The notes below the pieces were generated by a model that had not been told where the DNA came from, did not search any database, and worked only from the letters and a program-made list of their open reading frames with translations. From Catajapyx aquilonaris (lineage: Eukaryota): DNA of 20,000 bases. Location: NCBI GenBank assembly GCA_000934665.2, contig JYFJ02001975.1:45599-65598 (forward strand), written 5' to 3'. Below are positions 417 through 20,000 of this stretch, piece by piece. The first letter of the stretch is position 1. Each line of letters opens with the position of its first letter. Both the position numbers and the translations under genes were made by a program.

Positions 417-894
417 ACCCACTCTGGTAAATAATCTGACGTACACCTCGTTTGGTAAGAATCCTAGTATCATAAGTTTGTAATAATAGAAAATCTCAAG
501 GTAATATTGATAACCATATAAGGTAATATGGATAATCATATAAGGTAATATGGATAACCATATAAGGTAATATGGATAGTCATATAAGGTAATATGGATA
601 GTCATATATAAGGTAATATAGGAAATCCCAGTTAATCTAGGTAATCAGGTAAGATAATCAGGGTAATCATGGTTTATACGTTTTAGAAGAACGGATAACC
701 CCTCAATATTACGTTATGATTACCCAGATTACATCCGTGATTACCCTGATTGCCTGATGATTACCCATATTACCTGATGATTACCTACAGGTATATTGCC
801 TTATGATTACCCATATTACGTTATCATTATCTTGACACTTTCTACTATATATCGTACTTTTGATTACCAGGATTACCTGATTACCAGAGTGGGT
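417..894. mobile_element. Non-autonomous foldback/MITE-like element with 14-bp terminal inverted repeats and inverted subterminal repeat arrays (CMC/EnSpm-like by inference)
   Basis: ACCCACTCTGGTAA (417-430) is the exact reverse complement of TTACCAGAGTGGGT (881-894). The left half is built of GGTAAT units and the right half of ATTACC units. Flanks of the CCC/GGG ends are TA and TG, so the TSD is imperfect. Confidence 0.6.
498..620. repeat. 22-bp minisatellite (AAGGTAATATGGATAAYCATAT) x~5.5 inside the foldback element
   Basis: AAGGTAATAT recurs at 498, 520, 542, 564, 586 and 610. Confidence 0.9.
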
Positions 895-1582: not shown

Positions 1583-2110
1583 TCAATTCGATATATCAAT
1601 ATATCGCATTCCATTCGATTTCAGTTTTGATGTATCGATACATACCATACTGTACTATTCAAGATTTCAATTTTGGTGTATTGATATATCGCATTCACTT
1701 TGATATTTCAGTTCTAGTTCGATTTATCGCATAGAATTCGATATCACTGTCGATATATCGCCATAACGATAGAAGTCGATTTTTACGTTTGAATGTATCG
1801 ATATATTCCATAAGATTCAATATTTCACTGTCCGTTCAGTGTCAGTTCAGATGTTTCGATTTATCCCATAGGATTCAATACGTCGCTATCGACATATCGC
1901 TATATCGCACACAACTCGATATTTAAATTTTGATGCGTCGATATATTGCATAAGATTCAATGTTACACTGTCGATGTATCGATATATTGTGTACAATTTG
2001 ATATTTCAATCTCGATGTTTCGATTTATCACTTACAATTCGATATTTCAGATTCGATATATTGAATGCAATTAGATATTTCAGATTCGATATATCGATAT
2101 ATCATACAAT
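1583..2110. repeat. Degenerate ATCGAT/TCGATAT-rich tandem repeat (units roughly 30-45 bp)
   Basis: Recurrent TTCGATATTTCA and GTATCGATATATCGCATA words; TATCGATA at 1633, 1796, 1977 and 2092. Confidence 0.85.
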
Positions 2111-4952
2111 GTGACATCTCACGGGATTATACAAACATAATGTAATTTGACACCCACGCCACGGTACGACCGTTATGACCGTTATAACGGTTAGATCGAG
2201 TTAAACAACGCGCCTACCTCTCTAACGGTCGCTTTTTCATCATTTCTTCCCTCTACATTTTCGACTCATCTTGATCCATCCAATCCACTAGCACACCCTG
2301 TACATCCTACAGCCTATCGTAGTTCATCATCCATGCAAATTGAGAGAGTGGGAGGGAGGAAAAATAGTCGGTTGATAGTGATTTGACAGGTCGGAAGTTG
2401 AATCGGGCTGACAGTCGCGAGAATTTTGTCTAGGGTTTTCCTATGGAAAGTTGGGTCACGGAATGTGGGGGTTTATAGGATTGGAGGGAGAGAGGGAGTG
2501 GGAGGAAGTGGGGAGTCAGCCCTTGCCACTTCACATTGGCTTGGAAACTGGGGGAAGGATCAGGAGGGGAGAGAACTCGTGGGAAAACCTGCATCAGAGT
2601 GGAAAGTTGCAATTATGGAATTTCCTTGGAGGCGGAGTCAGACAAGAAATGGGGAAATGGGGGGAAGGAGGAGAGGGAACGTTGATCCTAATTCACAAAA
2701 GAAAAGTACATTGTTGAAGATAGTTACGTAATCAAGGATTTTAATGAATTTGTGTTAGTACAAACTGGCCATTAACATCGGAGAAAATCGATCAGATAAT
2801 GTTCTCTGGGTATCCCGACAACTGGCTGCCGTGCCGGTCAATTGGCTGCCGTGCCATTTGGATGCTGCCTTTTAGTTGCTGAGTAAATTCGCTCACCAAA
2901 TGACAGGCAACCAAAAGCCGTACATTCGTGTTCTGTGACCCCCCCCCCCCCAGATAATGCGGGCTCTGTGATCCAGCACAAGGATGGTAGTTCATTAAGG
3001 CACTCAGATATAATATTACACAGTCCACATATGCCAGTCTTGCAAGTGTCTAAGTGTAACTAGGCCTAGAGGCTTTTCGAGTGAGTACCCGAGTGTATTA
3101 CAAACTGAAATTGAGATACGCATCATGTGAGTGCATGTAGGCCACAGTACTCATTTGTGATATGACTTCTCTTGAGGCCTAACTAATTCATTTGGCTAGA
3201 AATTTATGCATTGTACTGTACTTTGTTGGCGCAATGCAAATGCACTTGTTTATTTAGTTTGGAGTGGAAAATGGCGCACTATGTGCATGGTATGTGCCCT
3301 AGACCTATATACAAAAATTTTAAAATTTTTAAAATATTGAAACAGTTAACTGACAGATAATCTCTTAAAGATGCTGGTTAAATAGGGCATGTACAAATCG
3401 GTTAAGAATAGTACTTAGTGTGAGTGCTCAGTAAACTGGTTAATTCTGAACCGACATGCCAGGCACTTAATGCAAGCTAAGTAGCAGTTATTAAACGCTA
3501 TAACAATACGTGATTTGAGTAGAAGGGATCAAAGTTGTTGGTGGAAAGTTTCTTGGGGCTGCAATAATTCGATGAGATTTCCAGTATTATGTTACGAGAC
3601 TGGATGTTTTCACACGGGGTAAAACTTACGACTTGAAATATGTACAGTACCTTGCACTGTATTGCTGAATGTGGAGGATATGAGGATTATTCAAAATGTG
3701 AGAGTCTATAGCGCATAGAAGTAGTAGAAAGATGTGAACACTTTTCAAATTTATATTTCGTTGTTTATGTTTCTGAAACTGTTGGCATCCTTTCCTTCAA
3801 TTGGCCAACATGCAACTGTTGCTAAAGTTAGTTGATATTAGATGTGAAAATGCAGCAAATGCAGTGCATGAACAGAAAGTTCTAGCTTGTATGTTGTTCA
3901 TAAAATTTGCAGTGCATGAGAGAGTAGAGATCCAGCTAGGACGAGTTAATTCACAGAGTATGTACTGGACATAACTGTATGATAAATTTGATAATAAACA
4001 CAATTTATTATGATGAGTACAGAAACAACAATTACACAGAGGTTGACTAACACAAGCAACAAAACCAACAATGTTACAGTGTGGGGGTGGCACAACACTA
4101 AATACTATTAAGTTATTATTAATATAAGTTTAATATCAACTCTATTATATATTTATTCATTTTCTATGGATGGTTTATTTTATTCGTTTTTTATGGATGG
4201 TTATTTAATAAATTTTATCTGAATTGCTATTTTTATTAATTTTCTCTGCGTTGCCTTTATTTATTTGTACAGGTATTATTCGGTCTACTACTCATCGAAG
4301 TATTAGCTATTTATTATTGCTATTGAATGTGATTCATTACATTCAAAAACGGATTTAAAAAATTAGGAAGCTTAATAAACTGTCATTAATCATGCAACAA
4401 AATTACTGAAACCTGTCATTAGTGAAATATTATTAAAAACTAAGAGTTCACAACCTGCTAAACCCTTCACATTATCCCCCCTCTCTCTTCCACACCTGCT
4501 ATAAAATTCCATCGGATATTAGCTTAATCGCATTGAAGGCGTGTGTTTCAGCAACACGCCTCCCCCCTGGTGCGCCCCTAGTGGACATTGTGTTGGTTAG
4601 ATGACGAAGCCGTCCCTTAATGGCAATACAATGGATTCTCCCACACACCCTACCCTCTCTACCCCATCTATTCTCCACCAATAAAAAACTACTCGGGTGG
4701 GGGGGGGGGGGGTTGACAGCTGCCAGAGTTCGGCTCCCAAAATCCCCTCTTTCGCCTACCGGATTAACCTTGTTAATAGCCAAATGTGCGCGGGATTTGC
4801 CCGCGGGTTTTTGATCCTACCCCGATTTTTTTTTTCGTGACGAAGACCCCATGTTGGCCCAATAATTGCTCATTTGCATGCAGGTGCGACAGAGGAATTC
4901 ACTCGACCACAATGATGGGCTCCTTAGGGCTGTCAATAGCTGAAATAATGGG

Positions 4953-5250
4953 TTGGATACAACATGGCGCCCTCCATGTGTCTGGATAGTGTTTCTCAAC
5001 CTTTTTACGCTTATGAACACTTGAAATCATATACATATGTTAGGGAACGCCCAAATAGTAATAATTATATCAATTAATGACTAAAATGCATTTACATATC
5101 CTTTTATCACAATTTCTGGTTGAGACACCTGGGATACAACATGGCGGCCTCCATATGGCTGGATACAAAATGACAGCCCCATAGCCCGTTACATCCATGG
5201 AGGCTGCCATATTTGCTCCAGATCAGTACTTACCATTGTTTTGACCTCAA
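4953..5250. repeat. Dispersed repeat family with a TGGATACAAMATGGCGGC (YY1-like) core, copy 1
   Basis: TGGATACAACATGGCG-type units near 4954, 5132 and 5160, plus an inverted unit near 5200-5222. It resembles 6094-6515. Confidence 0.7.
4987..5131. mobile_element. ~145-bp hAT (Charlie-like) MITE remnant inserted into the repeat unit
   Basis: Left end TAGTGTTTCTCAACC (4987-5001) and right end GGTTGAGACACCTG (5118-5131) are imperfect inverted repeats resembling the Charlie-type CAGTGKTTCTCAA end. The element interrupts a CTGGAT|ACAACATGGCG unit, with GGAT present on both sides. Confidence 0.65.
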
Positions 5251-5924
5251 TTGTTGCCGACAAGGTCCAGTTTCAGCTCCGGATTTTCCAGCCTCAAACA
5301 TAAAGTCACCTTATGACACCCTAGGTCATAACCACTAAGTACTCGAAAATTTACACCAGCTCCTACTGGTACTTAGGTCGTATTTCTATTCATTACAGGT
5401 GCCGATTAAACGACGAACCTCGCACTGCAATTAACTTTTCCACTCTAGCCTCTACCCAGGTTCCCCCAAAAAATTGTCTGATTCATCTGCACAACACATA
5501 ACCAAAATTCCATGGAAATACATATACCCTCTCTCTCCCCCCCTGATTATCATTCGTAGGATGCTTCATTATTCAGCGAAGTACAAAATTCCTAAGCTCC
5601 TTTTATTGCCGGAGCTTTATCTCGCATGCCTGATATGAAAGCAATATTTTCCTCCCCCCTCCTCCCCCTTTCCTCCCCTCTCCTCCATACCCCCTCTGGG
5701 CCAAATTACTAGTTGGATTCGGGACTTTTTTATTATTTTTTTTGAAATTTTTGCATATAAGATGTATGCATGGATGATTCTCGAAGGACCGTTTTTTTAG
5801 AGAGGGAAAATAAGGTTAAGAGACCATTGTGGTTAATGCGATTGTTAGTAGGCACATTATTGTGTGTAATGGGGCTGGTAGTCATTCCAAGAACTCTTTG
5901 TTATGATAGAGGGGCATATACTAT

Positions 5925-6515
5925 GTGGGATGTAACTAGGAAATTTTTTAGGAAATCTAAGTTTTTAAATCTAGATAATTATTTTTTATTAAATTTTAAA
6001 AATATTTCTATGAGCAAATGAACTAACAGTGTCATAGACGGTCCCAAAGAGCTTAAATAATAGGCTATCTTTGTACTGGACTTAATATTGTACTGGATAC
6101 AAAATGTCGGCCTCTATACTGTATAGCTGGATGCAACATGGCGTACCCCCATGTGCTGGTTGGATACAACAGTTATGTAGTGTATGGGGGATGTAACTTG
6201 GAATTTTTTAGGAAGTTTGAGTATGTAGGGAGTCTACATAATTGGAGATAATTATGGCTAAATAAGAGTTTGTTAAATTTTTACAATATTTTTATGGGCA
6301 AATGAACTAACATAATGACTCCCCCTAAAAGGGTGCGTGCCCTCAAATGGGGTTAAAAAGAACTAACGTAATGACTGAAAACTACACAAGTGTCCTGTAT
6401 GGCCTTAAATAATAGGCTGGAAACAAAATGGCGGCTGGATGTAACATGGCACATCATTAGGCCGCTGGAGGCGACCATTTTTGGTCCAAATATGGATCTA
6501 TCATTGTTTTGAGCT
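5925..6515. repeat. Diverged direct duplication (~5925-6130 vs ~6187-6435) of the same YY1-core repeat family
   Basis: Shared blocks in the same order: GGGATGTAACTWGGAA..TTTTTTAGGAA, AGATAATTAT, AATATTTYTATGRGCAAATGAACTAACA and CTTAAATAATAGGCT, followed by TGGAWACAAAATG. Confidence 0.8.
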
Positions 6516-7632
6516 ATCTTACTCAATTTTATTCTTCTTAATTGTTAAAAATTCATCTGCATTAACATATTGTATTCATTTACTTAACTAGCACTTTACG
6601 ATAAACCCAATATCTTCTAATATCAGTGATTGACCCATACTTCGTGCAAGGCGTCCACACCCCTAGTTCTTTGTCCATTTGCGTGCCAACCATAACTCAC
6701 AACTTAATCTACGAAATTGGTCCGCCGGTCAAACTATCGGTAAGATGACAATAGAACCCATCTTTACCCCCCTCTCCCCCTCCCCATCTATAACCGACCC
6801 TAAGCTAATGGAGTATTTAAGACCCCCAGAAAGTCAGCTACACAAACAAATGTCCCCTAGCTCGTTCGAGGTGTCATTGTTAGTGTCCAATGAAAGCATA
6901 GTGGGGTGGTGTTGGGGGGGGGGGGGGNGGGGGACTGGTAATGGAAGTGCCAATGAATGACCCCCACCGAATTCTATTACATTCAACCTCATTTAGTAGG
7001 CTAAACAATAGGTCCCCGCATACACAAACAAGTCTAATAGATGTCTTCCTTTTATGAAAACCGCGCTGTGGTTTAGAAAGTCCGTTGTAGGAAATTGTCT
7101 AGTTAACTTGGGAAACTGGGTTTAGAATTAAGTACCGGTCGAGTACGAACTTTCGTTTTAAAAAAAATTTGGGTATGCGAAACTAGAGGGGGTGAAATTG
7201 CAGTAATTTATATGAAGGAATCCTGGAATATTGTGCAGGGGGCATTGTGTAGGCCTGGTTGGTATATTCAGGGACGCTGCCGCATTGGCGCTGTGGTTTG
7301 TAGGCCGCTTTCCTTTATCTTGTATTAAATTGAGGTCAGCTTCATTTTCATAGCTGAATCTATAATAAATGGCTCTAATTAGTTAGTCACTGGCACTTGT
7401 GGCCATCCTGGGTGACCTAGACCAGTAGAGTCGACTAATAATGATGATTGCGGATTCTGATGAGGGGCAACGGCTGCTCGGGTCATGATCCTTCCTGCTA
7501 TCCTAGATCTAGAACACATCCGTCATTTCAAACACTGCTCTAACAAATCATAGTTCGCTGGCATGAACCTCAGCTCACATGGAACTGTAACTCTGACTCT
7601 AATACGGTTTCTTACAGCATATGACAAAATTG

Positions 7633-7831
7633 CAGGGTGTTCCAAGTTAGTGGGTCTTTTTTTTAGTTATGACTGATATCGTTCGAAGTGGTTATTTTTG
7701 TGTAGCTTGTTGTGCCCAAATAATCGAGGCACCTGGATCTGGATGCTACAAAAAAATAATAACTATTTCGCGAGAAATTTCCTATATTGGGCCTAACTAT
7801 TTTAAAAAAACCACGAACTTGGAACACCCTG
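7633..7831. mobile_element. 199-bp Tc1/mariner-type MITE
   Basis: CAGGGTGTTCCAAGTT (7633-7648) is the exact reverse complement of AACTTGGAACACCCTG (7816-7831), and the match extends to 21 bp with one mismatch. Flanks are TG and TA, consistent with a TA TSD carrying one substitution. Confidence 0.8.
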
Positions 7832-7836
7832 TATAT

Positions 7837-8174
7837 CATCTCTTTTAAGTAGTAGAGTACACTGGAAGTTATTTTAACCAACAGTGTATGCAGTTCTTTT
7901 TGGTAACATCGAAGAGTAGCAGCTATTTTCAGTAACAGCGTACACTAGCAGTTATTTTCAGTAACAGCGTACACTACCAGTGATTTTAAGCAACAGTGCA
8001 CGCAGTTATGTTTGGTAACATTGAAGAATAGCAGTTCTTTTTGGTAACATTGAAGAATAGCAGTTCTTTTCAGTAACAGCATACACTAGCAGTTCTTTTT
8101 GGTAACACTGAAGAGTAGCATATCTTTTTCAGTAACAGCGTACACTAGCAGTTCTTTTAAAGGTACAGTGCTTG
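7837..8174. repeat. 25-30-bp minisatellite with three interspersed unit variants
   Basis: About 12 units: A CAGTTCTTTTTGGTAACATYGAAGARTAG, B CAGTTMTTTTCAGTAACAGCGTACACTAG, C CAGTKATTTTAAGCAACAGTGYAYG. Confidence 0.9.
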
Positions 8175-8854
8175 CAATAGCAATACTTTGCCAGTGTTTT
8201 GGATCAGAAGCTACAGATTCGAGCATTCGGGTTATACATCACTTAACATAACCTGTCCAAACCTAACCTTCAGCCTCGAACGACCTCCCTCCTGTCAACG
8301 AGTCTCTGAAACAAAAGCGCATTAGCCTGAACCTTTTCTCCCAGCAAATGAATTGGCCTACTCAGACCGTGGATAAACCCTCGGATCAGATTGAGTCTAG
8401 GCGCCGTGAATGGTACGCTTCCCCCGGATGATCCCTAGGGTCCATCATCCGGGGTGGTGTAGCAGCCCTGTCAATGCTAGGGGTAGGGAGGGGTATAGGG
8501 AATGGAGGGAAGAGGGGGGAGGAATGGAGCATATGGCAGTCCATTTGGGTGATTGTGGCCCCGCGTGAGGAGACCACACTTAATAGAATTCGGCTTGGCT
8601 TTATGGCCGTGGGATTACCCATCCCTTTGTCTGGCCCCGTTCGACTACCATGCTGCTCAGCTGACTGTCATACTGCAGGGGCCCCTGGGCCAAACCATGG
8701 TTCTGCCACCCCCTTGTGGGGACAGGGGGGAGTTAATTCAATTGACAGTTTTTTGGGGCATCTCCTGTGGTGCTAACAGCTGACCTATAGATCATATGTG
8801 AGTCATATGAGTAGGTCACCCACTCACCAAGGTGTGAATGTGATGAGTAAGACC

Positions 8855-9790
8855 ATTATTAATTAATTTATCAATATGGTAGTTTGTTTATTTATTCAAT
8901 ATTTTATTTATTCATTCATTCATATAGTATTTAAGTTATTTATTTATTTATTCATTCATTCATATAGTATTTTAGTTATTTATTTATTTATTTATTTATT
9001 CATATAGTATTTTAGTTAGTTATTTATTTATTCAGCAATTAATTTATATTTTATTTATCTATTTAATATAAAGGTAATATATTTTAATTTACCTTCATTT
9101 AATTTAAAGGTACCGGTAATATATTTTAATTTACCGTCATTTAATTTCTAGTAATCAATTTCATTTAATTTAGCTGACTTCGTTTTAATTTATGTAATGG
9201 ATTAATTTTTATTCATTTTAACTAATTTTATTTGTTTCTAATTAATTAACTTTATTTTAATTGACTCGTTTTTGGTTTACGTAATTAAATAATTTTGTAA
9301 ATTTTTGTTTATATTGTAAATGTTCCGAGTAATACCATTTTTTTATTTATTTATTTATTTATTCAGTGATTTAGTTATTTATTGAGAATGAGAAATGAGA
9401 GATGATTGAGAAATATTTAATATATCTATTTTCAAATAAGAGTAATCAATTTTCATTTACTTTTATTTAATTTAAAGTAATCAATTTTCATTTACTTTTA
9501 TCTAATTTAAAGTAATCAAGTTTCATTTACCGGTACTTTTGTTTAATTTAAAGTAATCAATTTCATATATTCTTGGTTAATTTTATTTATATTTAGTCTC
9601 AATAATATTTTTAACTTTAAATTCATATATTTTGAATTACTTAAGTTAATTTTATTTGACTCATTTGTTTCTTGTAATTAAATTTTTTCGTAAATTTCCC
9701 ATTATTTGATTAATAATTTTTATTTATTTTGTGCATATCGTATTTTCATTTATTTTGTGTAGGCCCATATCGTATTTTTAATTAATTGTG
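8855..9790. repeat. Very AT-rich low-complexity block containing 40-bp and 35-bp tandem repeats
   Basis: CATATAGTAT at 8921, 8961 and 9001 (period 40); AGTAATCAA at 9441, 9476, 9511 and 9552; a duplicated unit at ~9070-9150; (ATTT)n runs. Confidence 0.85.
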
Positions 9791-10609
9791 GGCTCGTCCA
9801 TTACCTACGCATTTCATGTGTGATGGCATTCATATGTTCATATGCTTACAGTGTGTGGTCAATATTGTTAGCCTGTGTCCCTGCTGACCTCCGCTACTAA
9901 AATTCTGTGTCCCTTCCCCTCGAAATTATACTTTGTAATTAACTCTCCAGCCAGATTACTGCAGGTAAATACAACAAGGTTTTTTTTACAACCAAAAACA
10001 CCCAACTTCATTTGCATTTAGAGCATAATTCGCATAAGGAATAATTTATCTTAACCCCCAGTACTTTTTTCCTCTCACCGCCTCCCAAAATACTCATGCA
10101 TTTCTACAGCAAGAATACACACCTAATTTGGGTCCAGCCCACTAGAAAAACAACAACAATAAAAACAAAAAAAAAAATGTAAGAGGAAAAAATAGGCGTA
10201 ACACTGAGGCCTTTTGATATAATCCTACATAACGAGGAGGAAAAGGCACAATTTTCATTCCTAGGGAACTCACATACGGAGCAATTAGGTCACTATTATG
10301 AGCCGTTACGCACCGAGTCTGCGGTTATTTGTGTGTTTGCACCGCGGTTTATGACTCGGTGAGGCTCGTTATGTCCGGGCGAGTAGGCCTCCGGAATGGC
10401 CCCGGGGCCAAAGGAGGGTTCAAAAAACTGGGGTGTGCAACTTTAAGCCAAGACTTAGCAGTAAATAATGCACTGCTTGTGTATTTATCTCATTTAAAAA
10501 TAAATAAATAAGGAAGGATTATTATAGGCTATATATTAATTCAATCTACCCAATCTATCTATTATATTAATTCAAAAGGAATAATTTGCACATAATTTAG
10601 CACTTTTCA

Positions 10610-10792
10610 AATTATTAAGCAATTTAAGAATTAATTTGGCAATTTAAGAAATTATTATTAAGCAATTTTAAAATTATTTAGCAATTTAGAAATTTATTTG
10701 GCAATTTAAGAAATTATGAAGCAATTTTAAAATTATCCAGCAATTTAAGAATTTATTTAACAATATTTAAAATTTGTTTAGCAATTTAAAAA
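10610..10792. repeat. ~20-bp AT-rich minisatellite with a GCAATTT core
   Basis: GCAATTT at 10619, 10639, 10662, 10681, 10701, 10721, 10740 and 10781. Confidence 0.85.
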
Positions 10793-10861
10793 TGATAATC
10801 AGGGAAAATCACCAATAAAAATATTGAAAAAAATACAAAAATGGCAACACTGTACGAATTA

Positions 10862-11240
10862 CAGGGTTGTCACGTTTAAACCAACACTTAGCAGTATGTG
10901 CCCGCTACTGTGAGTTAATGAAGTTAATTTTAAAAATAAACGAGGAAAGAAAAGATATTTACATTAATTTAAAATTGATAATTAGGACAAAATGTAGCAA
11001 TTTAAAATGCATTTAACTATTTCGCAATTTATTTTATAATTTAAAAATTTATATTACATTGTAAAAATTTATATTACGTTGTAAAAATTTATATTACATT
11101 GTAAAAATTTATATTACATAGTTAAAATTTATTTTACAACTTAAAATTTGTTTTGCAATTATTTAAATATGATAATTAGGGCAAAAATCATAAATCAAAT
11201 TAGTGACATAATATACAAATATAGGAAAATGGCAACACGG
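10862..11240. mobile_element. Possible hAT-like non-autonomous element in a tandem arrangement
   Basis: Begins CAGGGTTGTCA (10862) and ends TGGCAACACGG (11230-11240). The junction TGGCAACAC..N6-9..CAGGGTTGTCA occurs at both 10842-10872 and 11230-11257. Confidence 0.4.
11041..11140. repeat. 20-bp minisatellite (GTAAAAATTTATATTACATT) x5
   Basis: Exact 20-bp period at 11041, 11061, 11081, 11101 and 11121. Confidence 0.9.
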
Positions 11241-12862
11241 TAAGAACAGGGTTGTCATTACTGCTGAGACTATTTAAATATCAATTTCGCTTTCAAGTTT
11301 CCTGCCAAATTATCCTATGCAATATGGAAAGTACCGGCATCATAACTGGCATTCCCAACACATGAATATTTAACTCGAATACTATCGGCACCTTGTACCG
11401 TATTCCGGCTCTAATTATTAAATGAAATTAAATGCTCACGATTCCTGGATGCCACACCCTATAAATATTTGATGGGCGAGGTTAACAAAAGGCAAGGTAA
11501 TTTTTAATAGCAAACTTAATAATTTATTTAACAGGCCTAAGGGAAAACGGGTCTTTCATAAACAAGTGTTATTTTTGCATATTTTCCGCAGTATTTTTGC
11601 ACAAACAGACCGTGGGTGGGGGTTGCATAAATCATAACACATGTCCTGAATATGTTGTCAACTTGGACTAATTTTTTTTTGCGTTATTCCACGACCGTAA
11701 ACGACTCGTCAAAAAAGAAACATGAACGCAAAACCAACACTGAATATTTTTGCTTACACTACACCCAACAATCCAAAAAAAAAAAAACATTTATCCGTAG
11801 GGATTTTTCCCTTTTTGCGTTTTGAATATTTCAGGACTTGCTTCACCAGCACAGTATCTTTTTGTGCTTCGTAGTCGCTTTTGTGCGGCTCTGTAACGTT
11901 ACAACCAGGCCTAAAACCCTCTCCCGTTGGAATTTTTGCAACATCGCTATATCTCCAGAGAATTTGCCAAGTGTGTAATGATATTCAGTTGGGTTTAAAA
12001 ATTATGCGTAGCAGAGAGAATTATTATGTGGTGAAAACTTCTGGCAGAAGCTTATTTTAAAACTAGGTCTAGAACAGTGTTTTTTGAATGCAAACCTGAC
12101 AAGATAATAATGTCGTGTAAATTTGAGGTTTATTTATGGTACCTATGTAAGACCATCTTACTGCACAATGATATTAATAATCCTAATAACTAAAATCCAA
12201 CAGTTTATTTCACCAAAATAATCCTACCTTGAACCAACCCTAATCCAAATTGCCCTCGATAATTCCATACACTCTAAGCCTATGTCACTCACACGTATTA
12301 CACTACCTGGTGACCCCCAATTTTTTGTGTCCCCAGTAGGACTTCATTGCTCATTACACGCTCAACTTTGCTGATCCTAGTGCTAATCCGATGCTCAATA
12401 CAAGTCCCATAGAGCTCGCATTTGTATCAATTACAAATTCGCGCACCAATGGCCAGACTTCCCCCTTAATATTTCACTTTGATAAGCTGGACCCGGGCTG
12501 GCCTGTCAGTTGGTGAATGGACCAGAGGCCGGCCATTAATTGCAGGCGTTTGGACCTGATGTGTCATTCCCATTACTGCCAAAAGCTTACCCCCATCCAA
12601 ACCCCCTCCTTTCAGTGGGTTACACTTGGGGCTAGTCGGGCCTGACCTGGCTCCCTTTGTGTTATCCACTCTCTGGACGTAACAAATTGATTCAACTATT
12701 ACAATATACCTACCAACTATACCAATAACATAGGATCAAAATTTCACCGATTTTCTCAAAAATTCAAATCAAGGTGTGTAGTGCGGTGGGGTCAATTTGG
12801 ACCTCAGAAGTACATGCTTCCACATATAATTATGTCGGATTGGCTCAAACTATGGCTAAAAT

Positions 12863-13260
12863 CTATGTACTATTTCAGCACAATGTACTTTCTGTGTACT
12901 ATTGTATGTACTATTTCAGCTATTGTCCTGATAGAGTACATAGAAAGTACGTTATAGAGAAATAGTATATACACTAGTACATAGAGAGTACATTATATGC
13001 TAAAATATTGCATATTTTAGCCATATTTAGTACTATTTCAGCACAATGTACTCTCTATGTACTATTTCAGCGCAATGTACTCTCTATGTACTATTTCAGC
13101 GCAATGTACTCTCTACGTACTATTTCAGCACAATGTACTCTCTATGTACTATTTCAGCGCAATGTACTCTCTATGTACTATTTCAGCGCAATGTACTCTC
13201 TATGTACTATTTCAACACAATATACTATCTATGTAGACTACTACGCGTATTTCAGCACGA
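12863..13260. repeat. 29-bp minisatellite (GTACTATTTCAGCRCAATGTACTCTCTAT) in forward-inverted-forward arrangement
   Basis: Near-perfect units at 13030, 13059, 13088, 13117, 13146, 13175 and 13204; a forward block at 12863-12920; an inverted block at ~12931-13007. Confidence 0.92.
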
Positions 13261-14524
13261 TCAGACATTGAACTGTTCTTCCCGACAGTTGATACCTTAA
13301 CGCTTAACCTATCTCCCTCAGTTTCATAACAAACAACGTTTCCAGAAACATGTTTACGCAATGCTAATGAGGTTTAAACAAGCGCAATGGATAACACGAT
13401 GAGTGAGCACCAATTATGGGCAGCCGTTTAATAGTTCCCCAACCTTTCAAGAGAGGGGAAATTCACCCCCCATACAACCGCCNCCCCCCTCTGAAAATCA
13501 CACGCATAAACCTGCCACTCGCTTTGCATTTCCGCTAATTTACAGCGTGCATTGCGCAATTTGTACCCATGAATTATGAGCATTAGTTGCGTATAACGTG
13601 TAAATTAATGTTTAAATAATTCGGTTCATGACGGGCTAATCATCATAAAGGGGGTATTTTGATAATATTATTAGTTTATTACGGGCTGTTTGAAGGGATC
13701 GTGAAGCGTTGAGTGTCTTTTTGAGTATGTGTTCTGGTATGACAAACACCAAATTTATTTTTCAACAAAATTGGAGAATTTTTGAAAAAAAAAATGGGAA
13801 CGAATTTTGACATTTGATATGATTCACAAGAAGTTAATATCAGAAGAATTTAAATATCTGACATTGAAATTAATATCCTACCTTCTGTATACAGTTCACT
13901 TATGTGATTATTCTTTCTCGAAAAATAACTTCGAAAAGCAAGAGCTTCATTTTGGTTTAACACATGATAATCAACCCCTCCTCATGTTTCTCCCAGTGGG
14001 AAGATTATTCCAACTGTTATCCACTTCCAACTTGCTCAAGCCCCTCCTTTTATGGCCACTTATGCCAAGAATGCTCGAGTCTCCGTATATCTAATTCAAT
14101 TTCGTCTCAAACTTAGCTTAAAACTTTTCAAAGTTTTTGGAGAATGGAGAAAACCTATAGCGTATAGTAGTAGAAGAAGAGAAAAAAAAGTCGTCGTAAA
14201 TTTCGTTTGATTATGCTGTGACAAGTGGACCAATTGGAAGAGGAGTAGGAATCAAGTTGAGCTGAATCGGCTTATCTTGAGAAAAAGCTTTTGGAAGGTC
14301 ACTAGAAGCTTTACCATGAAGGCGGTTTGGTAAAACCGGTGTGTTAGAGAGTTATAAGTCAAGAGGAAAAACGACTAATTAATTAAGCTGGAAGATAGCC
14401 ACTCATCTATGCCTAGGATCTTCCTAGAAAATCTTTCCCGGTTATATCAAAAACCCAGCTTTGCAGGCGAGGCGAGGTTTTGGAGAAGACTGTACAATAT
14501 AATTATTATTTTTTATCTACACAC

Positions 14525-14855
14525 GTTTTGGTGAAATTATTTTTCTCAAAAATTCATATTTTGATCAATTTTCTTAAAATCAATAATTATTTTGGTCAAA
14601 TTATATTTTGTCAAATTACATTTTGGTCAAATTACATTTTGGTCAAATTTTCTTTCGGAAGATCCACATTTGGGTCAAATAATTTTTCTGAAAAGCTGTC
14701 AAATTATTTCTTGGGAAATTTTAATTTTTGTCAAATTAATTTTTTAAAAAATGGTATATTTTTGTCAAATGATTTCTTGGAAAAAAATATTAATTTTGGA
14801 ATATCTATATTTTGGTCAAATTTTCCGGAAAAATCCTCATTTTGTCCCAAATTAT
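14525..14855. repeat. Degenerate TTTTGGTCAAATT short-unit tandem repeat
   Basis: About ten TTTTG(G)TCAAAT variants; the best-conserved part has a 16-17-bp period around 14590-14650. Confidence 0.8.
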
Positions 14856-15624
14856 TGGAGCAGTTGAAGTGCAAAATGGCGTCGATCCTGTCGTATAAAG
14901 GTCAGATGTGAAAGGTCAGGCGACCAAAAATTCCTATTTTCAGAGGCTTGGAAAAGCTAGCGTCTAATCAAGCGTCCTCTCTCTGATGACGGAGCTCGCC
15001 CCGGGGCAAATAGTCTTCTTTAATTAAGTCTCCTCGGTCGGTTTCCCATATTAAAGGTTCCTCTCCCCAACCCCTCCTTCCCCCCCCCCCCACTCTTTCC
15101 CTCCCCCCATCCAAAAGCCAAAATCCTATCACTCACACCTCTTTCCTTTCGGTCTCATATCATCACGGGAGAGGGGATCACCGAAGGGATCATGTGATGG
15201 ACCAGGCCTTGGAGACCAATTTTGGCGAATAATTTGGTCGCTGGTCCGAAAAAGTGGACCTCTTTTCAGCAGGGGGTTTTCAGAGACGAGCGCAGATAAA
15301 ACTACGATTCTGTTATATTGAGCTCTTAGATCGATATGACCTGAATGCCCAACTGTAGATATGAAAAATATATTAGTCAAAAGTAGAGGTGTATCCAAGG
15401 GTGTATCGATAATTGATTTACAATATGTTATTAAAATTATCGATATATCGATGTGGACGTCGATTTGTTTTAAAATATATGCTCTTTGGTATCGACAAGG
15501 ATTAGATCTTAGGTGTAATTATTTTAACCTACATTTAGTTGTTTATTAATTTTATCAAATAATTATGTATTTTGCATGATATTTATTTTAGTACCGTATT
15601 TGAATATCGGAATTATATATCATG

Positions 15625-15770
15625 ACTCGCTACTCTCGGCCGACAGCGAACGAATGGATGGTTCGTTCTTCCACCCACCAGAGGCTCTGCATCCACCACC
15701 ATTGCGCCTGCGCAGAACGAGGGCCAATCGGAAGCGTCGCTGTAACACCATATGGCGAACCAGTCAGATG
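15625..15770. promoter_or_regulatory. CpG-rich island with NRF1-like, CCAAT and ETS-like motifs (promoter-like or repeat-derived)
   Basis: TGCGCCTGCGCA at 15703-15714, CCAAT at 15724-15728 and CGGAAG at 15729-15734, within AT-rich flanks. Confidence 0.35.
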
Positions 15771-15873
15771 CATAACTATACAACCTGAATATGATTTTAA
15801 TAATAAATAGCCTACTTTGATTTCAGATATTTTACATTATTTAATATTTACTTTCATATTTACTTAGTGGGTA

Positions 15874-16281
15874 CAGTGCTGGACATAATAGCCGTCGCTG
15901 AATGTTTTTTTTCCGTCGGCGACGGCGCTGCGTTACCTGGCAACCCTGTCCGGCGGGCCAATTCAAACATCAGCCCATGGAGAGCGCTTCCATTGTTGCC
16001 ACTGTTTACAAATCGAGTGAGTGACGAGTACGACCCAGCGACGGGTCTCTTCTGCCTGCTTACACAGTATCGGCAGGGATATGCAGGAGAAAACGGGGAA
16101 AATAATGATGTTAGAAGCAATAAGTCATTTTGGAGTCACTCACTCGATTTGTAAACAGTGACAACAATGGAAGCGCTCTCCATGGGCTGATGTTTGAATT
16201 GGCCCGCCGGACAGGGTTGCCAGGTAACGTCGCCGCCGCCGGAAAAAAAACATTCAGCGACGGCTAATATGTCCAGCACTG
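15874..16281. mobile_element. 408-bp Tc1/mariner-type foldback MITE with ~150-bp terminal inverted repeats and a TA target-site duplication
   Basis: The left arm (15874-16025) and right arm (16135-16281) are near-perfect reverse complements, differing by a few substitutions and one ~5-bp indel. Termini are CAGTG...CACTG, with TA at 15872-15873 and 16282-16283 and a 109-bp spacer. Confidence 0.93.
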
Positions 16282-17020
16282 TACATAGAAGATGAAGTTT
16301 CTGGGCCAGGTTATGCCACCACAGGTTAGCTGAATATTTGAACAGCCTAATAAGGTTGATATGAAATGAATTCTTCCAATCATCGCTTGGACACTCAGAC
16401 ATTTTTCCAGCATTCTTGAAGCTGTCATTTTATAACCTCCTGTGCGCCTGTGGGAGAAAATGTGAAGCTAACCTTTGAAGAGCAACGTGACTCATTCTAA
16501 AGTTTACAACCCCCTCCATTTTTCTGTCTTCTCCCCCCTCGCCAACAAAAGGCTTAATAAAACTTCATCCTCCAAGTCGTTACAAATTCTGACCACACTT
16601 TTCCCCCATCATGGCTTTTTGTTTCATTGGATCTTAAAAAGAGCAGGGGGAGGTATAGAAACAGCTAAGTGCAGACACGTGTCTCAATTTAGGGTAATCC
16701 TAGTCATATTTTTTCCGAGAGAAAAAAAAAATGTGGAGTTAACAGAAATTGAATTGGATACGAAATGGCTGCCATTTTTGAGCGTTAGACTGTGCTGACT
16801 GTTAGATTTTTTTTTTATATAGGACTTATCAGATGTTATGGCTAGAAATGGCTGCCACATTTTTTAGATCCAAATTAGGTTTGGTTTGGCAGGGGCTTGA
16901 ACTCGGATAGGACGGGACGTATGTTGAGTCTGGTTTTAATTGGCAGAAATTGGATTTGTTTGATGGTGAAATGCACGTTTTGGAGAGATTTGAGTGTATG
17001 ATGGGATAAACAAGTTGTGG

Positions 17021-17330
17021 GTGACGTCAGTGGCAGCCATTTTGGTTCCACAATCAAATTTTCCTATTTAACATTGATAAATCGGAATTTAATTATGAAG
17101 CCAAAATGGCCGCCACTGACGTCACAAAACTATTATTTAAACATTACGAGATTAATTAATAGTGGCAAATATGTCAAAACAAATATTTATAAACGGTAGC
17201 GGCGGCCATTTTGGCTCCATAATTAAATTTTCCGATTTAACATATGTTAAATTGGAAAATGTAATTATTACATATTTAATTATGAAATATTTCTCACTAT
17301 TATTATTAATCTCGTAATATTTAAATAATT
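17021..17330. repeat. Nested palindromic (foldback) repeat carrying CRE and YY1-like motifs
   Basis: 17021-17125 is an imperfect palindrome (GTGACGTCAGTGGCAGCCATTTTGG ... CCAAAATGGCCGCCACTGACGTCAC). A second copy at 17198-17267 is centred on CATATG. 17131-17178 is inverted relative to 17281-17329. Confidence 0.85.
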
Positions 17331-18774
17331 CATTCAGGTTGTCATTTGTATTTAGCTCCAACAATAAACCAAACCTGACATCAGCAGCAAAGTAATCTAA
17401 CGCGCCGGATATTAAATGGTGCCATCTAGCGCTCCCCCTCTGCAAACTCCCAAAACCCAGACACGGAAATGCGTTTTGGTACGTTATATACTGACTCGCG
17501 AACCTTATTATCGCCTCGAATTCTGGCAGTTAGTGTCTTAACGACACAATTTCTCGCTGACAAACGCAGCTCCAGCAATACGAATCATTTGGTACCAGCT
17601 TAAAAGAGGAAGAAAGAGAAAAAAAAACCCTTTATAGACTCTTTCAATTCGAATCTGTTATTGCCTGAAGGAAGCGATTCATATAGAGTGATTTTTCCTA
17701 CAGGCTTCTAGAAAATTTCGCGAATTTTGCTGCGATTTTTAGGCCCGAAAACGCGGGAGTCCCAATGTGGCAACACTGCATCCTTTTATTACCACAAACG
17801 TGGCAACCATGAAGTGTTAAGTAGCCGCCATTTTGTATCCAAACTTTCAAGAGAGAAATTGGGAATTCTGCTGACTCTGGGTTTGTCCGATCAATCTGTT
17901 ATTGATAGGGTGGGTTGCTAGGATCAGTGGGATTGCTTTGCCCCGTTCCAGTCTCCATTGCCTCGTTTTTTAACATAAGGAATGGTGGGGGTTGTCAGGA
18001 GAGGAAGTTGTGAGAGTGGATCGGGTGTCATTCACAACTTCAAGAATAGTTCTAGGATTTCGTGGATTCCTTTGTCTTGTATAGGTTTGAAGATCGGGTT
18101 TCAAACATCTTCACTTCAAGTGTGTGGTTAACCAGAGTAAAATGATGTCAGTATATCCGTAGGCTATACCATCATCACCATGATAATTATATTTGATAAA
18201 TAAAAATTGCAAAACAATACAGTAATTAATGCTATTAAAACACAATTATTACAAATGGATCTTGCTATTAATTAATTGCATTACTAACTCTAATTCGTCA
18301 GCATGTATTTAACAATAAGTAATTAGAGGTTTGCATAAAATGCAATATTGTGGTATAGAGAACAAAATGCTTTTTTGACTAGCTCTGTTCTACTGCTAAC
18401 ATCAAAATCTACTTTATATTAGCCTTGGGGAAAATCATCTTCAATTTCTGAGGAACATGTTTTAAATATGTAATAGAATCTAACTAGATCATGCACTGTA
18501 CAGTGTACTCACAGTGGAAGCGCAATCTCTGTGATGTGCTAGTTTTGATAGGATTAGAGATTTTCCCGCACGGAAATACTTCCCAGGCATACTGGCGAAA
18601 ACGTGCAACTTTCTGCAATCATAATTAGCCTGCGCAGTGTATTATTACGTTGATTACTCACACTTTCCACACGCCTTGCTTTGTAACACAACCGCACTGT
18701 CAGAATTACGAATAACTTGTTTCAACAATCAGTTTTGCAACATATCATCTCTTAAATTTGGCTAAAACCGGCAA

Positions 18775-19008
18775 GGCAACCGATTGCTATGATAACATAT
18801 TGGCATGGCAACCAATTGCTATGGAAACCGATTGCTATGGCAACCGATTGCTATGGCAACCGATTGCTGTGGCAACCAATTGCTGTGGCAACCAATTGCT
18901 ATGGCAACCGATTGCTATGAGAGCATATTGATATGGCAACTAATTGCTATGGCAGCGCAATCCTGTGGAAACCGATTGCTTTAATAATTGCCATGGCAAC
19001 CGATTGCT
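18775..19008. repeat. 16-bp minisatellite (CCRATTGCTATGGCAA) x~14 resembling tandem RFX X-boxes
   Basis: Clear 16-bp period over 18805-18920, with degenerate units on either side. Confidence 0.92.
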
Positions 19009-19583
19009 AATAATCTGAAACAGAAAGAGATTGCCATAACAACCAAACCTGTATAAGTAAACATACAAAACAAACTTTGTCTCTTTGATGACATTTAGTG
19101 CAAGTCCAGGTCCTCAACACTGAGAACCCTCTTCCTAGGGGATGTACAGGGTGTGCTTCACAGTAGACTTGACACGGAAACGCAGCAGAAAGGTAATCCC
19201 ATTTACATAGAGTGGTCCTTGGCAAAGGCATCCTGCTCTTTGAAGCCATAGAGCCCTTCTGAAGTGGGCCTATTCAATAAATGGAGTGGCGTCGGCGCAC
19301 AAATTGGCACAAAAATTGTGCCAATTTCAACCCCCAAATTTGTGTGGGGTTAGTTGAGACACACGTAGGAGGGTACTCTCCAACTCTCCAAAATCAAATA
19401 GTTTAGAGTTAAGGAGCATTTGGAGTAGTCTTGTCCCTTTCCCTTTGGATGGGACTATAAAGAGGGGAGTTTACGATGAATAAAATTTCACTTGAAATCA
19501 TGCTTTATGATGCGGGGGATGCGACCCATTGTCCTTGGCACCGATAGGAGGAGGATAGGAGTTGATGTGAGGGGTCAGGACGA

Positions 19584-20000
19584 GAGTAGCCCTGGGCAGG
19601 TCGAGGTTATGTGGAGGTTATGTGGAGGGTTTGTCACCAAATATGCTGTCTCCACGTAGGTTTTTTGATGGATTTATGTTTTTTACGATACTGATTATCA
19701 GCCGCTTTAAAAGAAATAGACAAAACTAAATTTTACGATACATAAACCCTGTAGAGTCACCCTGGGCAGGGCCGTTACGTCAAGGTTATGTGTAGGGTTT
19801 GTCACCTAATATGGTCCGCGAAGGTTTTTTGACTTCTTCATATATTATGCAATACTGGTTATAACATGCCCAAAAAGAAATTTTGAAAATGAATGTTTGA
19901 CACACAAAAACCCTCATGATGCCAATAGTTGCCGCAAAACATGCACATAACGCGACTTGTGGAGGGTTTGCCACCATTCTGTGTTGTCCCCACGGACGTT
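19584..20000. repeat. Diverged ~168-bp-period repeat, probably continuing past the window end
   Basis: TGTGKAGGGTTTGYCACC at 19621, 19789 and 19958; GAGT..CCCTGGGCAGG precedes the first two copies. Confidence 0.7.

Follow-up and report, generated by a model that had tools for sequence, protein, structure and literature searches.

The window, by which I mean the whole 20,000-nt stretch of DNA analysed, contains four short insertions at TA dinucleotides, each carried by one repeat unit and absent from its sister units. The initial annotation had described them as four TA-duplicating micro-insertions; they are real and lie where it placed them, with TACTGTA at 1648 and 6117 (and also at 3214) and TACCGGTA at 9111 and 9528. 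They are listed here with the block that holds the TACCGGTA pair and with the further insertions from in-register pile-ups of tandem units.

786..793: TACAGGTA, 6 bases inserted in just one unit of the 20-bp array 706-829 (in-register pile-up)
1648..1654: TACTGTA, case 1, a 5-base insertion in one unit of the ~40-bp satellite 1560-2115
6117..6123: TACTGTA, case 2, a 5-base length excess in unit 6095-6130, with ambiguous gap placement
8895..9580: AT-rich block of related tandem units, with both CCGG insertions inside
9111..9118: TACCGGTA, case 3, a 6-base insertion, CCGGTA, in unit 9098-9139
9528..9535: TACCGGTA, case 4, 6 bases inserted in unit three of the 35-bp array 9441-9563
13234..13249: complex 11-base excess (insertion at 13236) in the last unit of a 29-bp array (in-register pile-up)

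With the proviso that the gap in case 2 can be placed in more than one way, the sister units at all four sites show just one TA or a close variant. The changes are insertions rather than deletions, and the TA is duplicated, as in a footprint of the Tc1/mariner kind.

In case 1 the extra bases are CTGTA or, equally, TACTG. When the satellite is cut at a common anchor, these five bases are missing from all eight regular sister units, and in its in-register pile-up they form the sole 5-base insertion among 14 rows. In case 2 the unit that bears the excess is 36 nt long against 31 nt in three sister units (5132, 4955 and 6129). MAFFT sets the gap 3 bases to the right of where the initial annotation had it, which leaves the placement ambiguous; the earlier placement has one mismatch fewer by a hand count on the alignment. 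Compared with the nearest large paralogue (6183-6450), 16 bases rather than 5 are absent from the paralogue.

For these two cases a duplication followed by one or two substitutions is a live alternative to a footprint. Extended to the whole set, this would be a history of ordinary small insertions, in which slippage copied 5-6 adjacent bases, substitutions later altered the copy, and the TA...TA words arose by chance with no transposon involved. Four of five bases of the insert match the adjacent five in case 1 (TACTG beside TACTA) and again in case 2 (CTATA beside CTGTA), and the host repeats are old enough to have taken up a substitution, the satellite of case 1 having 86% identity to its consensus and the units of case 2 a mean column identity of 78%.

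The strongest of the four cases are the two CCGGTA insertions. The six bases are absent from all five related units in case 3; in case 4 they are missing from two full units, at 9441 and at 9476, as well as from an incomplete one at 9552. GC content is about 22% over 9001-10000, and within this AT-rich surrounding the two insertions have an identical G/C filler, 417 bp apart, at different positions of related units and with no local template. As read from the alignments, CCGGTA matches the adjacent six bases at 4/6 positions at 9111 and at 3/6 at 9528, and to judge from these bases neither insertion appears to copy its neighbours as a slippage-type tandem duplication would. Slippage would need two and three of the six bases changed to the same G/C word, and this in an array with 97% identity between units; it has also left no other trace, since 13 pile-ups show no exact 5-6 base tandem duplication. 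As an explanation of the set I consider it unlikely.

Other readings of the CCGG sites were discarded. A hairpin (P-nucleotide) or templated-insertion origin fails because the filler is neither a copy nor an inverted copy of either flank, and 9113-9533 is not one element with 7-base CCGGTAA ends, for at each site the repeat unit runs on without a break. Contigs of three of the four sequencing runs begin at 9534, which could reflect an empty allele; a T-run length variant at 9564 explains these starts equally well, and I draw nothing from them. Searched for in the literature, the word TACCGGTA turned up in primers alone.

The pile-ups are wrap-around alignments; a concatemer alignment and a self-BLAST indel table were dropped for their out-of-register or low-identity gaps. 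Across the 13 pile-ups every internal unit-specific insertion of 5-6 bases (4/4, at 786, 1648, 9109 and 9528) has the form TA, C..G, TA, and the dispersed case at 6117 likewise takes this form. The word TACAGGTA at 786 conforms to TA-CAGG-TA provided that the unit was CCTATAT in its ancestral form; the consensus of the array has CCCATAT. The excess at 13234..13249 has two readings: a mismatch-free one, TA-GAC-TA together with TA-CGCG-TA, and one with a single 11-base gap and a single mismatch. Five of six fillers are palindromic or quasi-palindromic, as expected of inverted-repeat tips.

Contigs built separately from four runs cover all four sites unchanged and at the depth of unique DNA, which makes an assembly slip unlikely. 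The reads all derive from a single sample, possibly the very source of the window, and this is what can be said for regarding the insertions as assembly or sequencing artefacts; against the agreement of four separately built sets of contigs, that explanation is scarcely credible. The initial annotation had proposed a table of 5-6 bp indels; of the 12 polymorphic indels listed, out of 14, none is of the footprint type. No allele or paralogue occupied by an element at these TAs was seen in the window or in the contigs of the one sample.

Word counts within the window were set against analytic expectations. The comparison, which the initial annotation had proposed genome-wide and against a Markov background, bears out an excess for TACCGGTA (2 observed against 0.13-0.24 expected, P 0.008-0.025) but not for TACWGTA (6 against 2.5-4.1) or TACSGTA (2 against 1.2-2.5), and the classes TACNGTA and TACNNGTA are not enriched in whole-window counts either. 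The lack of enrichment of TACWGTA in the window is a further point in favour of slippage. When the words of footprint type are taken together, 7 of 14 fall in tandem arrays, which make up 2,965 of the 20,000 bases (15%); this excess has a binomial P of 0.002 if the arrays are weighted by length and of 0.02 if they are weighted by their share of the TA sites. Outside the arrays the window has 7 words against 6.0-6.5 expected, no excess, and thus a genome-wide rain of footprints is not seen. The high density once attributed to the window therefore survives inside its tandem arrays only, and the further candidates put forward at 371, 3643, 3214, 11396 and 15592 are at chance level.

The restriction of the word excess to tandem arrays would suit a process independent of transposons, in which a 2-base staggered break at TA is filled in and untemplated G/C bases are added, mainly in such arrays. 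Several different fillers and the lack of a CC-ended element in the window also favour it, but untemplated addition would not repeat the same four bases, nor would it give fillers with C first and G last, most of them palindromic. A TA-specific break-and-fill process of this sort is not known to me, and I hold it to be very unlikely here. Highly doubtful, too, is the broader claim that TA-specific staggered break-and-fill with short G/C addition, at work preferentially within tandem arrays, and not transposon scars, alters satellite unit length, or, in a milder variant, that an undescribed CCGG-ended TA element has so strong a preference for tandem arrays that 5-6 base gains in satellites go back chiefly to its scars.

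Two elements in the window bear on where such fillers might come from.

7633..7831: short element with terminal inverted repeats (I11: 28 nt, 89%) and CAGGGTGTTCCAAG ends; flanked by TG on the left and by TA on the right
15872..16283: TA-flanked foldback MITE with ends CAGTGCTGGAC...GTCCAGCACTG and two inverted repeats (I1: 95 nt, 99%; I2: 57 nt, 93%)

The MITE, whose termini read TA, CAGTGCTGG...CCAGCACTG, TA, represents a CAG-ended, TA-flanked family. Its summed contig depth is 5,952-15,243 in two bins against about 20-45 in typical single-copy bins, a depth that is hundreds of times higher and indicates very high copy but is not a calibrated copy number. The CTG/CAG filler matches the tips of this element, which on that resemblance is a possible source type for the CAG/CTG footprints. 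In the same way, the CAGG filler matches the tips of the CAGGG-ended element at 7633-7831, a possible source type for TACAGGTA; the bin depth of this element is 527-934, and joints from 7717 to 7811 in 4-5 contigs per run represent shorter copies.

Elements that are flanked by TA and have ends of the form CC(G)...(C)GG are absent from the window. The initial annotation had recognized two footprint types, and the stereotyped form (TA, 3-4 bases C...G, TA), in the shape and size of Tc1/mariner footprints, stands; its derivation of TACCGGTA from an element with CCG...CGG ends finds no counterpart in the window, and the label "pogo/Tc2-like" for that source is unsupported. The ends of pogo and Tigger start with CAG. 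A 1.6-kb "element" with CCGT ends at 15592-17198 (11/14 end matches) was rejected, as the match stops after 14 AT-rich bases. Of the 75 ORFs in the window with at least 60 aa, none matches a transposase family in Pfam, Rfam gives no match in the window, and metagenome scans with exact MITE words returned 0 loci.

I take the micro-insertions, with a probability of roughly 0.6, to be footprints left by the excision of cut-and-paste transposons that target TA and belong to the IS630-Tc1-mariner group, a known and ordinary kind of mutation. An element would insert at a TA and duplicate it; a staggered cut by its transposase would then remove it, with 2-4 terminal bases staying on each flank, and end joining would seal the donor site to give TA, filler, TA. 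For Tc1/mariner elements, 5' cuts 2-3 nt inside the element are described (PMC2170065), and for Sleeping Beauty the canonical footprint has cag or ctg flanked by the two TAs (PMC5224488). TACTGTA would accordingly be a Sleeping Beauty-type scar of a CAG...CTG-ended element, whereas the source of TACCGGTA would be an element with CC at the start of its ends. Three routes could lead to this word: retention of both tips after a 2-base stagger (CC+GG), annealing of a 3-base CCG overhang through its CG, or a 4-base overhang, CCGG, that is self-complementary. A pair of identical scars separated by 417 bp would fit a local hop of one element that was excised twice. The former presence of an element at these TAs, its end sequence, its stagger length and the hop are what I infer from the scars, and to account for up to five kinds of filler (CTG, CCGG, CAGG and perhaps CGCG and GAC), more than one or two element families would be required.

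A product identical to an excision scar, that is, TA, a few terminal bases and TA, would also remain if the same source element had been lost by near-complete internal deletion, either through abortive gap repair or through deletion between its inverted ends. Internally deleted copies do exist in the case of the 7633-7831 element, as its joints attest. For CCGG, however, the endpoints of such deletions must have landed 2 bases inside both ends, and twice, a regularity that the stagger of a transposase yields with no extra assumption. I regard internal deletion as quite unlikely.

If the insertions are excision scars, they are a record of past transposon traffic that left no element behind and a visible source of unit-length change in the tandem repeats of this genome. 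They would also suggest that a TA-targeting family with CC(GG) tips exists, which should be findable in the full genome. The known mechanism is left unchanged by these scars; the only surprise is the limitation of the excess to tandem arrays.

Arca et al. reportedly described, in 1997, four-base Tc1-like footprints (a 6-bp gain) of Minos of Drosophila hydei. The CCGG cases have the same arrangement of TA, four bases and TA, and a self-complementary CCGG tip would religate without mismatch, although the CC(GG) end sequence, in this respect unlike the Minos type, belongs to no element seen in the window. A four-base filler is also within the range given for Tc1/mariner footprints, 2-4 bp (PMC7913693), and for those of the pogo-type Passer, 0-4 bp (PMC9976928).

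As for the consequences of such traffic in a genome, Wicker et al. (2016) regard the insertion and excision of MITEs, those of Mariner type included, as generating small indels in rice (PMC5023962). Their account of two rice species counts 158 excisions against 482 insertions, with 64 of the excisions from DTT_Mariner elements. Around excision sites in rice, flanking mutations are reported to be in excess. The rice excisions are demonstrated by orthologous occupied sites and left varied scars with fillers and deletions (PMC5023962), whereas in this window there are scars only, and these are stereotyped. In ISY100, a bacterial member of the IS630/Tc1/mariner group, the 5' cut lies 2 bases inside the element, and after religation the donor reads TATATA, or TA+TA+TA (PMC2170065). 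Tips are kept there between the TA copies by the same logic as that proposed for the scars here, although the ISY100 results come from a bacterial system in vitro and its filler has 2 bases (PMC2170065). The closest likeness in form for cases 1 and 2 is to the Sleeping Beauty or Tc1-family footprint. While Sleeping Beauty footprints are known from excision assays, the insertions described here are fixed in germline DNA, where the scars alone are seen; nevertheless, they have the same form, TACTGTA with a 5-base gain at a TA (PMC5224488), and the window that carries them also holds a CAG-ended, TA-flanked MITE.

The initial annotation described four micro-insertions that each duplicate a TA, two giving TACTGTA (a gain of CTGTA, at 1648 and 6117) and two giving TACCGGTA (a gain of CCGGTA, at 9111 and 9528), and read them as excision footprints, the bases left at a TA when a cut-and-paste transposon departs. 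All four words are present, and the sister units, the other copies of the same repeat, lack the extra bases. At 1648 all eight regular sister units of the 1560-2115 satellite, cut at a common anchor, pass from ATA (or a variant) directly into the next conserved block; unit 1635 is five bases longer, the sole 5-base insertion in the 14 rows of the in-register pile-up. The insertion at 9111 is absent from 5/5 related units, so its direction is gain and not loss, and that at 9528 is absent from two full sister units and a partial fourth unit in an array with 97% identity to its consensus. The weakest of the four cases is that at 6117: unit 6095-6130 measures 36 nt versus 31 nt in three sister units, the gap can be placed in more than one way (in the MAFFT alignment it falls three bases further right than originally placed; by my count the original placement saves one mismatch), and the closest long paralogue is shorter at the site by 16 bases, not 5.

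All four sites are unchanged, at single-copy depth, in contigs of four runs, all from one sample that is possibly the source of the window. These contigs were assembled separately per run and agree, which makes an assembly slip very unlikely; the agreement applies to this one sample only. In three of the four runs contigs start exactly at 9534, which is the first base that a hypothetical empty allele would share with the insertion allele; a length variant of the T-run at 9564 would explain the break equally. Elsewhere, at 18826, the GGCAACCGATTGCTAT array is one 16-base unit shorter in contigs of all four runs than in the window, and these contigs also show a 2-base difference at 18510; linked base differences cluster at partial depth in three places (6493-6572, 10201-10654, 19559-19655), an indication of a second haplotype in the sample, or of close paralogues. 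Assembly is uncertain at 6928 and 13483, each a single N within a long G or C run.

Thirteen arrays were aligned in register, each to its own consensus, and seven internal unit-specific insertions of at least 4 bases were counted.

Internal unit-specific insertions in the 13 arrays
786, 6 bases: gives TACAGGTA; fits the TA form if the ancestral unit differed by one substitution
1648, 5 bases
1825, 17 bases: local 11-base micro-repeat
9109, 6 bases
9171, 4 bases, GCTG: in a strongly diverged unit
9528, 6 bases
13236, 11 bases: TA-GAC-TA then TA-CGCG-TA without mismatch, or one gap plus one mismatch; candidate only

All four internal insertions of 5-6 bases have the shape of two TAs enclosing a filler that begins with C and ends with G (that at 786 with one substitution). 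Three further insertions at array edges (829, 1567, 19010), none of TA type, I regard as the alignment leaving the array; a stricter count that includes the two 6-base edge events would give 4/6.

Counts against Markov backgrounds within the window bear out the expected enrichment for one word and not for the others. TACCGGTA occurs twice versus 0.13-0.24 expected (P 0.008-0.025, orders 0-3), and both copies lie within 900 bases whose GC content is about 22%; for these bases the expectation of low-order models is 0.001-0.003. No enrichment was found in the window for TACWGTA (6 vs 2.5-4.1 expected), TACSGTA (2 vs 1.2-2.5), the class TACNGTA (8 vs 4.2-4.6) or the class TACNNGTA (6 vs 4.3). Of the 14 words, 7 lie in the 2,965 bases counted here as tandem or short-unit repeats, which make up 15% of bases (binomial P 0.002) and 22% of TA sites (P 0.02). 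Outside these arrays there is no excess, with 7 words versus 6.0-6.5 expected in 17,035 bases, and the further candidates that had been proposed at 371, 3643, 3214, 11396 and 15592 are therefore a chance product. The genuine signal is the comparison of sister units. The heavy insert-and-excise turnover read from the density of such words has no support across the window, the count outside arrays being at chance level. Among the 12 polymorphic indels listed, of the 14 revealed by contigs, none is of TA-footprint type, their lengths being 1, 2 or 16 bases, which counts against the footprint reading.

What could have produced these insertions? The fillers are CTG, CTG, CCGG, CCGG and CAGG, possibly also CGCG and GAC. 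Judged from the bases themselves, flanks in DNA almost wholly A/T cannot have templated CCGG; as a tandem copy, 2 and 3 of its 6 bases would be substituted, with the same word reached at two different related-unit positions. At 1648 and 6117 slippage could have duplicated five bases, of which one or two were later substituted: insert and adjacent bases agree at 4/5 positions, and the host repeats are old (78-86% identical). An exact tandem duplication of 5-6 bases was found in none of the 13 pile-ups. A short C-to-G filler, palindromic in most cases, between two copies of TA is what an inverted-ended element that inserts at TA and is cut out with a stagger would leave, and an excision footprint is the most likely origin of the TA micro-insertions. 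An element with ends starting CC may have entered one repeat unit at its TA and later excised, end joining sealing the donor break as TA-CCGG-TA; it would then have reinserted a few hundred bases off, in a related unit, and on a second excision left an identical scar. Such a local hop I infer for the two CCGG scars, 417 bp apart. Their sequence would be given equally by three cut geometries: a 2-base stagger with both tips kept, a 3-base CCG overhang pairing through its CG, or a self-complementary 4-base CCGG overhang; the CTG scars would fit a 3-base CAG overhang.

Two candidate source elements lie in the window.

15872-16283: foldback MITE of 412 bases, TA flanks, ends CAGTGCTGGAC, halves 93-99% complementary
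7633-7831: short element, 28-base inverted ends, CAGGGTG, starting CAGGGTGTTCC; left flank TG, right flank TA

The MITE shows a summed contig depth of 5,952-15,243 in its two bins versus about 20-45 in typical single-copy bins, a hundreds-fold difference that is not a copy number, and variants of it lie on dozens of distinct contigs, which shows that the family is very abundant. Contig joints between opposite strands at 16024/16059 point to hairpin variants. The short element has a raised bin depth (527-934), and shorter copies of it exist, with contigs from other copies skipping 93-104 internal bases (joints near 7717->7811). TA-associated elements with CAG and CAGG tips thus occur in this DNA. 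For CCGG, the best-supported scar type, no TA-flanked element tipped CC, CCG or CCGG was found within the window, which leaves the pogo/Tc2-like label given to the CCGG scars without support. The footprint reading is supported by the TA duplication, the non-local CCGG filler and the CAG-tipped elements of the window. No element-occupied site was seen at any scar in the window or the contigs of the one sample. Against the footprint reading, up to five types of filler would call for several element families, and the words show no excess outside arrays, where about 4/5 of TA sites lie.

The window is eukaryote-like, non-coding and rich in repeats (GC 22-45%), and the evidence comes from its sequence, the contigs of the one sample and published work. 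Rfam gave no matches, and none of its 75 ORFs of at least 60 aa matched a Pfam family above cut-off; the one sub-threshold match, to the ATG5 UblA domain (13786-14091, plus strand, E 0.0016, 19.4 bits, cut-off 23), could mark an exon or pseudogene fragment. Since many contigs join about 290-292 straight to 956-957, 291-955 (about 665 bases) is an insertion carried by this copy of a repeat and missing from its other copies; within it lie inverted 20-22-base arrays (498-619 and 706-829), no inverted repeat is obvious at its ends, and it terminates in AATAAAAA. A motif of the form AAAATGGCGGC / GCCGCCATTTT is found repeatedly, and on either strand, in 4955-6460 and 16760-17840, including the units around 6117 and a palindromic cluster (17021-17229); it resembles the YY1-type binding word.

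The Minos scar consists of four terminal bases, a 6-bp gain. In Tc1/mariner elements the 5' cuts are reported to lie two to three bases in from the element's end, and the ISY100 donor to read TATATA after rejoining (PMC2170065); the Sleeping Beauty footprint is 'cag' or 'ctg' with a TA on either side (PMC5224488), and published footprint lengths are 2-4 bp in Tc1/mariner (PMC7913693) and 0-4 bp in an element of pogo type (PMC9976928). ZB is described as preferring AT-rich palindromic targets (PMC7913693); such a preference is possibly one contributor to the confinement to arrays, and it is unlikely to explain all of it. Overall, the observation is confirmed and its interpretation as footprints partly supported. 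In rice, insert-and-excise traffic as a source of mutation was worked out via orthologous occupied sites, with 158 excisions versus 482 insertions, 64 Mariner-type (PMC5023962). Tc1/mariner footprints are a known phenomenon, probably seen here as fixed differences between repeat units; a putative CC(GG)-tipped family and scars confined to tandem arrays are possibly new.
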